A stretch of DNA of 64,000 bases from Thermoanaerobaculia bacterium (GCA_963816185.1 CAWFJJ010000001.1:480001-544000), one strand, 5' to 3'; counted from the first letter of the stretch, positions 15,609-64,000 are shown. Made by a program: numbers and translations. The notes: generated by a model from the letters alone, not told the origin.

Positions 15609-16432
15609 TTTCTCGTCCTGCTTGGAGACGAAGAGAAGAAGAAAGACGAAGGTTTCTTAGAAGGCGCGCGAAGGGCCTTCGCATGCCGACCTCGACTCGC
15701 CGCGTCCGCGGCGGTTGCCTTCTTCACCCTCAAAGAAATCTTTCTTTTTCTCTCTCTCTCATTCTTCTTTTCTCTCTCTGCCTTGGCCACGCCGACCTTC
15801 GGACAGACGTCCGCGAGCGTGCACCGCTCGCACTGCGGGCGGCGGGCCGTGCAGATGCGCCGGCCGTGCTGGATGAGCGCATGGCTGATCCAGGTCCAGC
15901 GGGCCTTCGGGATGATCCGGTTGAGGTCGCGTTCGGCTTTCCCTGCGTCCGTCTCGCGTGTCCAGCCGAGGCGCCGCGCGACGCGCCCGACGTGCGTGTC
16001 CACGACGACGCCGTCCGGAGCTCCCCAGACATTTCCGAGGACGACGTTCGCCGTCTTGCGCCCCACGCCCGGCAGGGCGAGAAGGGCCTCCATCGTGCGC
16101 GGGACCTCGCCGCCGTGCTCCGACACGAGGGCGTTCGCCATGCCGCGCAGGGATTTCGCTTTCGCGTTGAAAAAACCCGTCGACCGGATGACCTCTTCGA
16201 GCGCTCCGGGAGGCGAGGCGGCGAGGGCCGACACATCCGGGAAGCGCCGGAAGAGCTCCGGCGTGACCATGTTGACGCGCACGTCGGTGCATTGTGCCGA
16301 GAGAATGGTCGCGACGAGAAGCTCGAGCGGGCTCCGAAAATCGAGCGAGCACGCGGCGTCCCCGTACAGGTGCTCGAGTCGCTTCAGCGTCGGGCCGACC
16401 GGGGCCGCGTTCCGGACTTTTCGATCCGCCAT
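15605..16432 (-). CDS. nth: Endonuclease III with a Lys/Arg/Ser-rich C-terminal tail
   Basis: [17 protein letters not shown], HhH motif [18 protein letters not shown], 4Fe-4S motif [20 protein letters not shown] at 16432. Confidence 0.95.
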
Positions 16433-16519
16433 TTCAGGGACGGAGCATAACCGCGGCGAGCCGCAAACGAATCCGGAACTCTTGCTTCGAAAGGACCACG
16501 GTGCTAAGACTCGCGCGAC

Positions 16520-18235
16520 GTGAAATTCGGTCGGTCCGTCGCGCGGGCCCTCGCAGCTCTGCTGGCGTGCGCCTCGCTCTCGTCGCCCTCGCTCGCTCGC
16601 GCCGCGGACGGTCGCGTCGTCGTGACGATCCTCGAGACGACGGATCTTCATGGCCACCTACTCCCGTGGGACTACGGGCGTGCGCGGCCCGCCGACGAAG
16701 GCCTCGCCCGTGTGGCCTCGCGGATCGCGGCCATCCGCAGGGAGACCCCGAACGTGCTCCTTCTGGACGACGGAGACACGATACAGGGCACGCCGATCGA
16801 GTATCTCCACGCGCGCCGGCCGAACGACGATCCCGATCCGATGTCCGCGGCGATGAGCGCGGTCCAGTACGACGCGATGGCCGTCGGCAATCACGAGTTC
16901 AACTTCGGGCTCGAGGTGCTCCGCAAGGCGCAGAAGGAGGCCTCCTTCCCGTGGCTCTCGGCGAACACGCGGAATGTCTCCGACGGATCGGCGGCGTTTC
17001 CGGAATACATCGTGAAGACCGTGGGCGGAGTCCGCATCGGCGTCCTCGGGTTGACGACGCCGAACATCCCGACCTGGGAGCCGGAGCGGAACCGCCCGGG
17101 TCTGAGATGGGAGGATCCCGTCGTCACGGCACGGCGGCTCGTTCCGGTTCTGCGAGGGAAAGAGAAGTGCGACTTCGTGGTCGTCCTCATTCACAGCGGG
17201 CCGGAGATCGACCTGAAGACGGGCGCGCCTGACGGCACGGAGGCGGAGAACCGGGTCGCGGCCCTCGCGCGGGACGTGTCGGGCGTCGACCTCCTCCTGA
17301 CCGGCCACACTCACCGGAAGATCCCGCTTACGCGGATCAACGGCGTTCCGCTCATTCAGCCGGGCAGGTGGGGCGAGGTTCTTGCGCGCGTGGACGTGGC
17401 CTTCGAGAAGAACAGCGGCACCTGGCATGTCGCCGGCCTCGAGGGTGCTCTACTGCCTTCCGGGCCTGATGTCGCGACGGACGCAGCCGTCGCGAAGATC
17501 GCCGCGAGGCACGACGAGCGTGCCCGGGCCTACATGGAAGAGCCCGTCGCCGTCGCCGACGACGATTTTCCGGCCGGCCGGGCGCGGCTCGAGGACACTG
17601 CGCTCGTCGACCTCGTGAACGACACGCAGCTCAAGGTCACCGGAGCGGACCTCTCGATGACGTCGCTCATTCCCTCTGGCCGCTACGAAGGCTTCCCGCG
17701 CGGCCGGATCTCCCTGCGGGACGTCTATCGGCTTTACCCGTACGAGAACCAGCTCGTCGTCGTGGAGATCGACGGCGCGGTCCTGAAGAAGATCCTCGAA
17801 CACGCCGCGGAGTTCTACGGAAGCGCGACGTGGCAGGGCGGGCGGCTCGTCCTGAAGCCGAAGGACGGCATGATTCCCTACAACTTCGACGTCGTCGAGG
17901 GCGCGAGCTACCGGATCGACCCGACGGCTCCGGTGGGGTCCCGCATCAAGGACCTGATGTTTCGGGGGCGTCCCGTGAAGAGCGGCGACCGTTTCACGCT
18001 CGCGGTGAACTCGTACCGCGCGCAAGGCTCGGGCGGGTACGCAGCCCTGAGAGGCGTGAAGATCGTCAAGGTCGTGCAGGACGAGATCCGCGAGCTCGTG
18101 ATCGCCCGGCTGCGGGAGCTCGGGCACGTTTCGCCCGTCACCGACCACAACTGGGTCGTCGCGCCTGACGCCGTGTGGGCGCCGGAAGAAAGGGCTCCTA
18201 GTTCGGAGGGAAGTCGAAGTCCCGGATCACGTTGA
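16520..18235 (+). CDS. CpdB-like 2',3'-cyclic-nucleotide phosphodiesterase / nucleotidase (5'-nucleotidase family), periplasmic
   Basis: Signal peptide; ETTDLHGH, DDGDTIQG, GNHEFNFG, HSG, GHTH; LYPYENQL; AVNSYRAQG. Confidence 0.9.
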   Translation: MKFGRSVARALAALLACASLSSPSLARAADGRVVVTILETTDLHGHLLPWDYGRARPADEGLARVASRIAAIRRETPNVLLLDDGDTIQGTPIEYLHARRPNDDPDPMSAAMSAVQYDAMAVGNHEFNFGLEVLRKAQKEASFPWLSANTRNVSDGSAAFPEYIVKTVGGVRIGVLGLTTPNIPTWEPERNRPGLRWEDPVVTARRLVPVLRGKEKCDFVVVLIHSGPEIDLKTGAPDGTEAENRVAALARDVSGVDLLLTGHTHRKIPLTRINGVPLIQPGRWGEVLARVDVAFEKNSGTWHVAGLEGALLPSGPDVATDAAVAKIAARHDERARAYMEEPVAVADDDFPAGRARLEDTALVDLVNDTQLKVTGADLSMTSLIPSGRYEGFPRGRISLRDVYRLYPYENQLVVVEIDGAVLKKILEHAAEFYGSATWQGGRLVLKPKDGMIPYNFDVVEGASYRIDPTAPVGSRIKDLMFRGRPVKSGDRFTLAVNSYRAQGSGGYAALRGVKIVKVVQDEIRELVIARLRELGHVSPVTDHNWVVAPDAVWAPEERAPSSEGSRSPGSR

Positions 18236-62468: not shown

Positions 62469-63641
62469 ATGTCGCGCCTGACTCTCCAGACCGCCGGCGA
62501 GTCCCACGGTCCGCTCCTGACCGGTCTCGTCACCGGGCTGCCGGCCGGGCTGAGGATCGACGTCGCGGCGCTGAACGGAGACCTCGCGCGGCGGCAGCAC
62601 GGGTACGGCCGCGGCGGCCGCATGAAGATCGAGAAGGACGAGGCGCGGTTCACGGGCGGCCTGAGGGGCGGCGAGACGCTCGGGGGCCCGATCGCCTTCG
62701 AGATCGCGAACCGGGACCACGGCGTGTGGGAGGGCGTCATGGGGCCGGTCGAGATCGACGTGGAGGCTGCGGGAAAGAGGAAGCTCACGTCGCCACGTCC
62801 GGGCCACGCGGACCTCGCGGGCGGCCTGAAGTACGGCCGGCGCGACCTGCGCGATATTCTCGAGCGCGCGAGCGCGCGCGAATCCGCGGCGCGCGTGGCG
62901 GCCGGCGCGCTCTGCCGGCAACTCCTTTTCGTCTTCGGGATCCGTGTGAAGAGCGGCGTGCTTTCGATCGGCGACGTCGCGGTACCTGAGGGGCCGCGCG
63001 ACTTCGACGACCTCGACAAGGTCGACGAAACGTCGCCGTTCCGGCTCGTGGACCGGAGCGTCGAGGCGGCCATGAAGGACGCCGTCGACGCGGCCGCAAA
63101 GGCAGGCGACACGCTCGGCGGGACGATTCTCGTCGGCGCCCGCGGTGTGCCGGCGGGCCTCGGCTCCCACGTGTCGTGGGAGGAGAAGCTGGACGGCCGG
63201 ATCGCGCGCGCGCTGATGTCGATTCCCTCCGTGAAGGCCGTCTCCCTGGGCGAGGGCGTCGCGAACGCGTTCCGCCGCGGCTCCGCCGCGCACGACCCGA
63301 TCGCGTACGAGGCCGGGCGTGGATTCTCACGGACCTCGAACCGCGCCGGCGGCCTCGAAGGCGGCATCACGAACGGCGAGGACGTCCTCGCCAGGCTCTA
63401 CCAGAAGCCGATCTCCACGCTTCGCGACGGCCTTCCGTCGGTGGATATCGAGACCAAGAAGCCGCACCGGGCGCAGTTCGAGCGTTCGGACGTGACGGCC
63501 GTGCCCGCGTGCGGGGTCATCGGAGAAGCGATGCTCGCCTTCGTCCTCGCCGACGCCCTCCTCGAGAAGACGGGGGGGGATTCCATGGAAGAAGTGACGA
63601 GGAATTTCGAGGGTTTTACGAAAGCGCAGAAACAATACTGA
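62469..63641 (+). CDS. aroC: Chorismate synthase
   Basis: TAGESHG, RRQHGYGRGGRM, PRPGHAD, ERASARESAARVA, NRAGGLEGGITNG, ERSD. Confidence 0.96.
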   Translation: MSRLTLQTAGESHGPLLTGLVTGLPAGLRIDVAALNGDLARRQHGYGRGGRMKIEKDEARFTGGLRGGETLGGPIAFEIANRDHGVWEGVMGPVEIDVEAAGKRKLTSPRPGHADLAGGLKYGRRDLRDILERASARESAARVAAGALCRQLLFVFGIRVKSGVLSIGDVAVPEGPRDFDDLDKVDETSPFRLVDRSVEAAMKDAVDAAAKAGDTLGGTILVGARGVPAGLGSHVSWEEKLDGRIARALMSIPSVKAVSLGEGVANAFRRGSAAHDPIAYEAGRGFSRTSNRAGGLEGGITNGEDVLARLYQKPISTLRDGLPSVDIETKKPHRAQFERSDVTAVPACGVIGEAMLAFVLADALLEKTGGDSMEEVTRNFEGFTKAQKQY

Positions 63642-63685
63642 ACATTTCGAAGAGAATCTTCTTAGAAGGGTAAGAGGGCCAGCCC

Positions 63686-64000
63686 GTGGACTTCGACCTG
63701 GAATTTCCTTCTAAGAAATCTTCCGTCCAGTTCAACCACGCCGCCGTCTGTCCGCTGCCCGCCCGCGCGGCCGCCGCACTGCTCGCGTACGCGCGCAACC
63801 TGACGGAGCGCGGAGGCCTCGACTGGCACGACTGGCCGAAGAAGGCCGACGAGGTTCGCGCCTTCGCGGCGCACCTCGTCGGCGCGGACGAGCGCGTCGG
63901 GGGAGCCGGCTCGATCTCGATCGTGCCGAACACCACGTGGGGCCTCGACATCGTGGCGCAGGGGCTCGACTTCTTGCCCGGCGACTCGGTCGTCACGACG
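63686..64000 (+). CDS. Class V PLP aminotransferase / cysteine desulfurase-like, truncated by window end
   Basis: Not in the ORF track. From GTG 63686: MDFDLEFPSKKSSVQFNHAAVCPLP...IVPNTTWGLDIVAQGLDFLPGDSVVTT. Confidence 0.85.
   Translation, partial: MDFDLEFPSKKSSVQFNHAAVCPLPARAAAALLAYARNLTERGGLDWHDWPKKADEVRAFAAHLVGADERVGGAGSISIVPNTTWGLDIVAQGLDFLPGDSVVTT

Follow-up and report, generated by a model that had tools for sequence, protein, structure and literature searches.

Among described repeats, the element reported here comes nearest to the DNA uptake sequences, namely the uptake signal sequence (USS) of Pasteurellaceae and the DNA uptake sequence (DUS) of Neisseriaceae, and to the REP doublets termed REPINs. 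Uptake sequences lie at poorly conserved residues, grow by point changes, carry excess information and are scarce in atypical DNA (PMC2817400). We analyzed a 64-kb stretch of a Thermoanaerobaculia genome assembly (GCA_963816185.1, CAWFJJ010000001.1:480001-544000; hereafter the window), in which a first-pass annotation had noted the dispersed 14-base motif CYTTCKAAGAAATC written into genes. This 14-mer forms the core of an arm, and two such arms, facing each other across a short spacer, make up a bipartite DNA repeat specific to one genus.

The likeness has several aspects: both are lineage-specific short motifs with conserved flanks and hundreds of copies, are equally frequent in both orientations, are placed at residues of low conservation in genes and also in spacers, accumulate by point substitution, hold more information than is needed and are rare in atypical DNA. 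Unlike uptake sequences, however, 84% of the strong arms seen here stand in facing pairs 30-400 bp apart, and the density is ∼1 arm per 7 kb (735 in 5.09 Mb) rather than ∼1 per kb; the host, moreover, is an uncultured acidobacterium without known competence. REPs are defined by an extragenic location and by each unit being itself a stem-loop (PMC12306157). The REPIN-RAYT system shares with our element two inverted arms around a spacer, a modal length, hundreds of copies, lineage specificity and enrichment between genes. In contrast, the host genome has no RAYT gene, the arms are not stable palindromes (the core is only a 4+1+4 quasi-palindrome), 42% of the pairs are intragenic, the spacer is unconserved and can be native coding sequence, and several arms derive from equal-length substitution.

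We also compared the element with more distant families. Copies of miniature inverted-repeat transposable elements (MITEs) and other non-autonomous transposons have inner sequence in common through descent, and their ends recur on an autonomous element; here, no internal sequence is shared beyond kinase paralogues and one nested unrelated repeat, and no autonomous element with arm ends was found. Rickettsia palindromic elements (RPE) are inserted units of ∼100-150 bp conserved along their whole length. Like these and other in-frame intragenic repeats, the present repeat is tolerated in frame in housekeeping genes, at surface loops and tails, but conservation is confined to two ∼28-nt arms with pre-existing sequence between them. 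Chi (RecBCD/AddAB) and KOPS (FtsK) are likewise oriented, over-represented, species-specific words within genes, read by a DNA translocase; they are 5-8 nt long, skewed with replication direction and unpaired, whereas the arms measure ∼28 nt, number 374 and 360 on the two strands and are locally paired. HIP1 of cyanobacteria is similarly over-represented on a massive scale in one lineage, inside genes in all frames, but is a perfect 8-bp palindrome with neither pairing nor long arms. The first-pass annotation had likened the motif to matS, Noc/SlmA and parS sites, which are single palindromic sites in tens of copies distributed by chromosomal domain; that likeness does not extend to the anatomy found here, with ∼735 asymmetric arms in pairs. 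Terminators and TRIT-like repeats differ in that the present pairs show no bias to gene 3′ ends and no Rfam match. The element lacks defining features of REPINs, MITEs, terminator repeats and parS/Noc-type sites, and shares the definition of uptake sequences only in part. We found no known repeat family that fits the motif, in line with the earlier annotation, which had recognised no match, and full-text searches of main texts returned no description of it.

Two facing arms and their distribution

Exact CYTTCKAAGAAATC occurs six times in the window compared to 0.00 expected from 100 dinucleotide shuffles, and when the variable base was set to N and up to one mismatch was allowed, nine copies were found compared to 0.07 expected. 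Each copy listed in the first-pass annotation was present, the weaker ones at 14-18 bits. Its remarks that the copies sit in unrelated genes and in purine/pyrimidine-skewed patches were borne out as well, the former by Pfam assignment of the hosts and the latter by motif-strand flanks that are pyrimidine-rich from about -12 to +30. The copies that it had listed, however, proved to be not single sites but arms of facing pairs, each longer than 14 bp. The arm spans ∼28 nt with the consensus purine tract-GGATTTCTT[A/C]GAAGG(G)TGAAT-GGGG; read towards the centre of the pair, it consists of ∼20 purine-rich bases, GGA, TTTCTT[A/C]GAA, GG(G)TGAAT and a G-run. Its core is a 4+1+4 quasi-palindrome, and the arm as a whole is asymmetric.

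The pairing was evident across the 5.09-Mb host assembly (30 contigs). Around the 430 genome copies of the 10-base core, TTCNAAGAAA, neighbours within 400 bp comprised 90 facing, 9 back-to-back and 21 tandem arrangements. A 28-column matrix at a threshold of at least 20 bits identified 735 arms, compared to 67 in a reversed-genome control, and among arms at this threshold 233 neighbours were facing and 11 back-to-back. A facing partner 30-400 bp away was found for 453 of the 542 strong arms, and a back-to-back partner for 26. At 16 bits, 294 pairs were obtained. Core-to-core distances ranged over 40-400 bp, mostly 60-200 bp with a mode at 75-80 bp, and showed no 10.5-bp periodicity (Rayleigh z 0.12). 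Ser/Thr kinase paralogues account for 18 pairs exactly 94 bp apart (DFLEGEE ... YSFEEI), and part of the copy number therefore reflects gene duplication. These 94-bp pairs are carried by a large kinase paralogue family located at C24:602898-620861 and on other contigs.

The strict 14-mer is present in 122 copies in the genome (57 forward, 65 reverse), and motif words make up most of the top over-represented 12-mers relative to base composition, with only a homopolymer artefact above them. That artefact is a run of ∼1.09 kb at C10:1147-2239, on a contig of 15.6 kb with 61.8% G+C, which is the source of 1071 poly-A 12-mers and almost certainly arose in assembly. A second over-represented word family, GCAATGGGAATTGC, has ∼39 copies genome-wide and is unrelated to the arms. 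Gene-based counts used 3399 crude gene calls made for this analysis. By these calls, 123 of the 294 pairs fall within genes, 32 extend across a gene end and 138 are intergenic, and pair density is about five-fold higher outside the calls (170 in ∼1.07 Mb) than within them (123 in ∼4.0 Mb). The intergenic pairs divide into 88 in tandem, 40 in divergent and 10 in convergent spacers, close to the shares of these classes in spacer length (58%, 27% and 15%), and thus show no preference for gene 3′ ends. The first-pass annotation had seen clusters 8-10 kb apart, and no such period exists genome-wide: across 252 inter-cluster gaps the median is 9.1 kb and the mean 16.7 kb, and the coefficient of variation (CV), at 1.31, indicates more clumping than random placement would give.

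Arm density also varied with composition, from 0.16 per 10 kb where G+C is below 62% to 1.86 at 67-69%, and was uneven among large contigs, from 4.5 (C29) to 22.5 (C28) per 100 kb. We note that the assembly is larger than the other genomes of the genus that were searched (2.6-4.8 Mb) and that C13, a small contig, duplicates part of C30 at 93% identity. Together with the uneven density, this suggests either strain redundancy or some mis-binned contigs, or a real effect of chromosomal domains.

Among relatives, all 24 same-genus genomes searched were enriched, with 32-148 strict copies each, compared to 0-1 in 16 genomes of two other families of the order. In a survey of 401 genomes of the class, genus g1 was enriched in 19 of 19 genomes, the neighbouring-genus genome G174 had 19 copies, and the rest had 0-3, mostly a G variant that spells FEEI. 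The arm consensus is thereby a sharp marker of the genus, G174 excepted. A 12-base version gave 8 copies in G174 and none in four other family members; in a near-closed same-genus genome (G019), a 12-base pattern occurs 256 times, with facing pairs 68-85 bp apart. No AT-rich over-represented word was detected among the top 10-mers of the sister genus G082 (400 kb searched), and no equivalent AT-rich word in outgroup loci L025-L032 (96 kb). Contigs from other public runs (an RNA library and a DNA run) cover the hemC and hemD arms; they come from relatives, and the best run holds 27% of the words. Since the 24 genomes, G019 and the public-run contigs all carry the motif, the patches are backed by independent assemblies, a point that had been left for checking when the motif was first noted. 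Among the contig rows listed, no skipping of an element and no inverted form was seen; the rows are uninformative on transcription or splicing.

Constraint on the DNA and origin of the arms

The coding context of the arms bears on what is constrained. Inside the gene calls, 59 strict 14-mers were counted compared to 0-1 in each of four synonymous-codon shuffles, and 209 copies of the 10-base core compared to 12-19, a 10- to 60-fold excess. Intragenic arms occupy all six classes of frame and orientation (forward 68, 29 and 72; reverse 36, 52 and 69), the commonest encoded peptides being PSKKS, FEEIP and DFLEG. Because intragenic arms are read in both orientations and in all three frames, the constraint does not lie on the protein. 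In a non-coding orthologous element compared across five species, arm columns were invariant at 21 of 25 and 13 of 18 positions, compared to 18 of 50 inner columns, and the inner segment had one orientation in all five.

We then compared the two arms of each pair. Arms within a pair were no more similar than arms of different pairs (14.18 matches outside the core compared to 14.58 ± 0.32 permuted), and the variable base showed no covariation between partners. For 116 intragenic pairs read on the sense strand, mismatches of the G-U type and of the A-C type were comparable in number (424 and 391; p = 0.26), and only 9 positions were complementary in >80% of pairs. Short elements (≤130 bp, single strand) nevertheless folded with their cores paired in 59 of 70 cases (mean z -2.86, compared to -0.05 in controls), as expected because both arms match one consensus. 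The information content of the arm is 28.6 bits, an upper estimate since the sites were chosen by score, compared to 13.8 bits needed for 735 sites.

Taken together, the occupation of six frame and orientation classes, the excess over synonymous shuffles, the invariance of non-coding arms and the confinement to one genus support a constraint that acts on DNA, independently of frame, strand, partner arm and enclosed sequence. The first-pass annotation had already argued that the motif is read in differing frames and strands and that selection acts on DNA rather than protein, and had pointed to a codon-preserving shuffle and to orthologues as the places to look. The frames, the shuffles, the non-coding conservation and the one-genus confinement sustain its argument. 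The orthologues gave a divided answer: substitution at equal length accounts for some sites, and in four of nine comparisons with a motif-free sister genus the difference amounts to +69 to +105 bp.

This divided answer rests on two sets of comparisons. In protein alignments, HemC and HemD of the genus were set against an outgroup family without the motif. The left arm of HemC replaces the outgroup loop LATAGDGG with GFFEGEEG, with three extra residues and rewritten codons, while its right arms fall within a Ser/Pro/Lys-rich insertion of 20-33 residues that precedes the last helix; left and right arms are separated by about 30 residues of conserved, native HemC. The left arm of HemD (VISSKET) corresponds to outgroup VVSSLNA at equal length with substitutions only, the right arm (HFLRNSS) corresponds to AELARRG, and native conserved HemD sequence again separates the two. 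Native sequence between the arms and equal-length replacement could not be produced by one inserted unit. Across 21 species of the genus, sites are kept in position but are graded, such that one hemD site passes from CCGCTGGAGCAGGTG through intermediates to CCCTTCGAAGAAATC, and matrix scores at orthologous sites form a graded series over the whole range.

The second set concerned nine homologous places in the motif-free genome G082, where the length differences were 0, 0, 0, -1, +21, +69, +71, +90 and +105 bp. We inspected four of the nine. The two coding cases were equal-length rewrites, one of them in a kinase for which the matched gene is possibly a paralogue. At the two intergenic places, additional bases stand on either side of a GC-rich spacer that can still be aligned. 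We conclude that at least some of the arms were built in place, through substitution and short indels in loops, tails and spacers, and not by insertion of a copied unit.

Readings of the facing pairs

We tentatively favour a reading in which the arms are polar DNA recognition sites, read by a predicted tracking machine and accumulating by a directional, drive-like process. Each arm would be a polar recognition site for one lineage-specific factor. Because facing is obligatory, and because neither helical phasing nor covariation between partners was seen, the reader is more likely to be a machine that tracks along DNA (for uptake, packaging or another translocase function) than a static bridge or a hairpin binder. 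Arms would accumulate directionally wherever the host sequence tolerates them, either through transfer-linked drive, as with uptake sequences, or through weak selection. A facing partner imported with homology on both sides could then favour facing pairs, a conjecture from theory. With distinctly more doubt, we consider that these sites may constitute a new class of signal: polar ∼28-nt sites written directionally onto codons and spacers and stable only as mutually facing pairs, each arm promoting the transfer, import or retention of its partner. The whole would then amount to a selfish or "self-marking" signal in two parts, which a tracking machine of soil Acidobacteria would read. Both functions that the first-pass annotation had proposed, binding of an unknown chromosome-organising protein and a DNA-uptake-like signal, stay candidates.

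Several points weigh against the reading favoured here. No protein was identified as the reader. Uptake sequences have not been described as standing in facing pairs, and with ∼1 arm per 7 kb the element is 5- to 10-fold sparser than the uptake sequences of Haemophilus and Neisseria (PMC2817400). The genome does encode ComEC and ComEA homologues, but these are widespread and say little, competence genes being near-universal. A uniform drive does not predict the five-fold difference in arm density between large contigs. The four G082 comparisons with 69 to 105 extra bp leave room for insertion of whole short elements at intergenic copies, and Ser/Thr kinases, for which the sequence compared may be a paralogue, make up two of the four cases of equal length. 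The folding of 59 of 70 short elements with cores paired would also suit a sequence-specific hairpin binder, and the gene calls are crude.

A rather unlikely alternative is that the pairs are static sites, in which one nucleoid-associated, chromosome-organising or global regulatory protein binds and bridges the two arms and selection keeps them together. Such a protein would suit the highly specific asymmetric sequence with its quasi-palindromic core, the obligatory facing orientation and the conservation of arms in non-coding DNA, and the differences in density from contig to contig could mirror chromosomal domains. However, 28.6 bits is about twice what 735 sites require, the loops of 60-150 bp lack helical phasing, the spacing along the chromosome is irregular (CV 1.31), and 123 of 294 pairs are intragenic, at a cost to the codons used and to the encoded protein. 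No protein emerged as a candidate.

It is unlikely that the pairs are a REPIN- or MITE-like non-autonomous mobile element, with arms as terminal inverted repeats, a trans-acting transposase that was lost or goes unrecognised, and copies that are old and decayed inside. The inverted doublet and its modal length do resemble REPINs; the greater density of pairs outside the crude gene calls and the 69 to 105 extra bp in four of nine comparisons with the motif-free sister genus also fit. Against this stand the equal-length rewrites, the graded intermediate sites, the native conserved coding sequence between the hemC and hemD arms and the position of the extra bases on both sides of an alignable spacer in the two inspected intergenic cases. 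Inner sequences are unique, barring the kinase paralogues and one unrelated nested repeat. The Y1/RAYT transposase (PF01797) had no match in the host genome (G000) and, among 14 further genomes of the genus, was matched in only 2, yet in 14 of 14 (g13) and 7 of 8 (g11) genomes of motif-free sister genera, and RAYT was rejected as a partner since its presence does not track the motif across genera. An autonomous element bounded by arms was not found in the genome either: none of the 12 long pairs, 400-5000 bp apart, encloses a repeated transposase-like unit, and one 93%-identical long pair is, by eye, a duplicated MetRS-like fragment on a small contig.

It appears improbable that the arms form the stem of a hairpin signal in RNA or single-stranded DNA, be it a terminator, an mRNA stabiliser, a processing site or a single-stranded recognition structure. 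The folding of the sampled elements with cores paired is what a stem would give, the arrangement is identical on both strands, and facing and back-to-back arms would form different structures, which could explain the orientation rule. Nevertheless, partner arms do not covary, the transcribed strand has no excess of G-U over A-C mismatches, and in genes only ∼9 AT-rich base pairs are reliably complementary, across loops of at least 60 nt. No Rfam family matched at gathering scores in the window, nor at E up to 1 in the interval 42400-43400. A terminator role was rejected given the lack of preference for gene 3′ ends. A ribosome-binding role, suggested by the likeness of the inward-read arm to a Shine-Dalgarno region, was rejected as well: only ∼12% of arms closely precede a possible start codon, equal to outward-reading controls (a plausible start within 90 nt inward for 85 of 732 arms, compared to 83 outward). 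We observed that the 3′ end of the 16S rRNA is standard (CACCTCCTTTCTAAGG) and that the forward arm loosely resembles it; with two gaps allowed, the likeness also takes in the inner flank of the forward arm (TTCACCTTCTAAGAAATC), matched to the 16S 3′ end plus the first spacer bases (TCACCTCCTTTCTAAGGGATC; L081:3040-3070; C1:444004-445559). With the ribosome-binding test negative, we treat this likeness as coincidence.

Highly improbable, in our estimate, is that the arms are crossover sites at which a site-specific recombinase flips the enclosed segment (invertons). Inverted oriented sites with an AT-rich core in many copies are the anatomy of shufflon- or invertase-type sites, and the host genome has six serine recombinase matches. 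But a modal distance of 75-80 bp is very short for synapsis and unphased, many pairs enclose essential coding sequence, and the inner segment of the non-coding element compared across species kept one orientation in five of five. Serine recombinases were present in 10 of 14 genomes of the motif-bearing genus and not found in 4 (tyrosine recombinases were not searched), and were rejected as a partner that does not track the motif; the lack of an inverted form among the contig rows listed is weak evidence in the same direction. Chance, low-complexity coding sequence, a protein motif or an assembly artefact are refuted by the counts, for even though some copies coincide with plausible protein motifs (as in the 18 kinase pairs) and G-variant copies occur elsewhere in the class at 0-3 per genome, 0 copies are expected in shuffles, the excess over synonymous shuffles is 10- to 60-fold, copies lie in non-coding spacers as well as in six frame and orientation classes, and the motif recurs in 24 genomes that were assembled independently, as well as in contigs from further public runs.

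Elements of the window and what they imply

The window has a G+C content of 64-73%, and its apparent clusters are six facing-pair elements, one with a decayed partner (Table 1). Host and neighbouring genes were assigned by Pfam to thymidine kinase, endonuclease III (nth), DEAD-box helicase, HemY-like amine oxidase, HemC, HemD, chorismate synthase, M1 peptidase and class-III aminotransferase.

Table 1. Arms of the facing-pair repeat in the window, with matrix scores and host open reading frames (ORFs)
Feature	Position	Strand	Score (bits)	Form of the 14-mer	Setting
Pair 1, left arm, core TTTCTTAGAA on + strand	15651..15664	-	19.9	Up to one mismatch	C-terminal tail of nth ORF (15605-16657, -), just before thymidine kinase start
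Pair 1, right arm, then CT-rich tract	15727..15740	+	30.3	Up to one mismatch	
Pair 2, left arm	25481..25494	-	23.3	Exact CYTTCKAAGAAATC	C-terminal tail of DEAD-box helicase (25235-26890, -)
Pair 2, right arm, cores 116 bp apart	25597..25610	+	30.2	Exact CYTTCKAAGAAATC	
Weak extra arm, same sense as pair 2 right arm	25639-25652		14.2	Weak	
Weak arm-like site	34606..34619	+	17.7	Weak	5′ end of M1 peptidase ORF (32800-34617, -; Pfam)
Strong arm	35473..35486	+	31.1	Exact CYTTCKAAGAAATC	HemY-like amine oxidase (34654-36888, -), read as GFLRR
hemC pair, left arm	42553..42566	-	22.9	Visible variant	Read as GFFEGEEG
hemC pair, first right arm	42679-42692	+	34.2	Exact CYTTCKAAGAAATC	
hemC pair, second right arm	42721-42734	+	31.6	Up to one mismatch	
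hemD left arm	42992..43005	-	21.2	Exact CYTTCKAAGAAATC	hemD (42837-43613, +), read as VISSKET
hemD right arm	43208..43221	+	30.4	Visible variant	Read as HFLRNSS
Left arm of last pair	63656..63669	-	29.9	Visible variant	Between chorismate synthase stop (63641) and next gene
Right arm of last pair, cores 51 bp apart	63707..63720	+	29.6	Exact CYTTCKAAGAAATC	Read as PSKKS if next ORF begins at GTG 63686

The strong arm at 35473 has only a degenerate facing partner, recognised by eye about 95 bp to its left (near 35378-35400). In hemD, a weak inner left arm near 43083-43105 is strong in relatives. Pair 1 and its tracts encode, by translation, a tail of ∼55 residues past the Fe-S cluster motif of Nth. 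In the interval 15605-15800 (-), the nth ORF traverses this whole element and finishes by overlapping the start of the thymidine kinase gene at ATGA; the repeat is either translated as the Nth tail or conceals the true nth stop. ORFs that run through elements in this way call for caution in gene calling. In the Ser-rich tail of HemC, a contig from a relative's RNA library lacks the 42 nt corresponding to window positions 42709-42750; this tail has many in-frame indels between species, and the CT/GA tracts beside the arms are unstable in length.

Two further observations concern elements outside the window. A ComEA-like protein with two HHH_3 domains (C1:554689-555318), 74 kb beyond the start region of the window, carries an arm pair in its inter-domain linker, with the cores 139 bp apart. 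A GC-rich hairpin repeat (GGGGG-TCCGGGGGCGCCCGAAGG-AGCCCCC-like) is nested within some arm pairs, for example at C24:129878-130207 and C30:539966-540184, and the same repeat is found in spacers of the sister genus G082 (L082-L101), whose genome has Y1/RAYT transposases. This is probably a classical REP family separate from the arms.

The motif has reshaped hundreds of genomic places in an abundant but uncultured soil lineage, and it imposes rare codons, amino-acid changes and low-complexity inserts on proteins such as HemC, HemD, Nth and the DEAD-box helicase. If the reader were found, it would reveal a gene-transfer or self-recognition system in Acidobacteria, or a new mode of DNA organisation. 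Its identification would also account for the "odd" loops and tails that recur in acidobacterial proteins.

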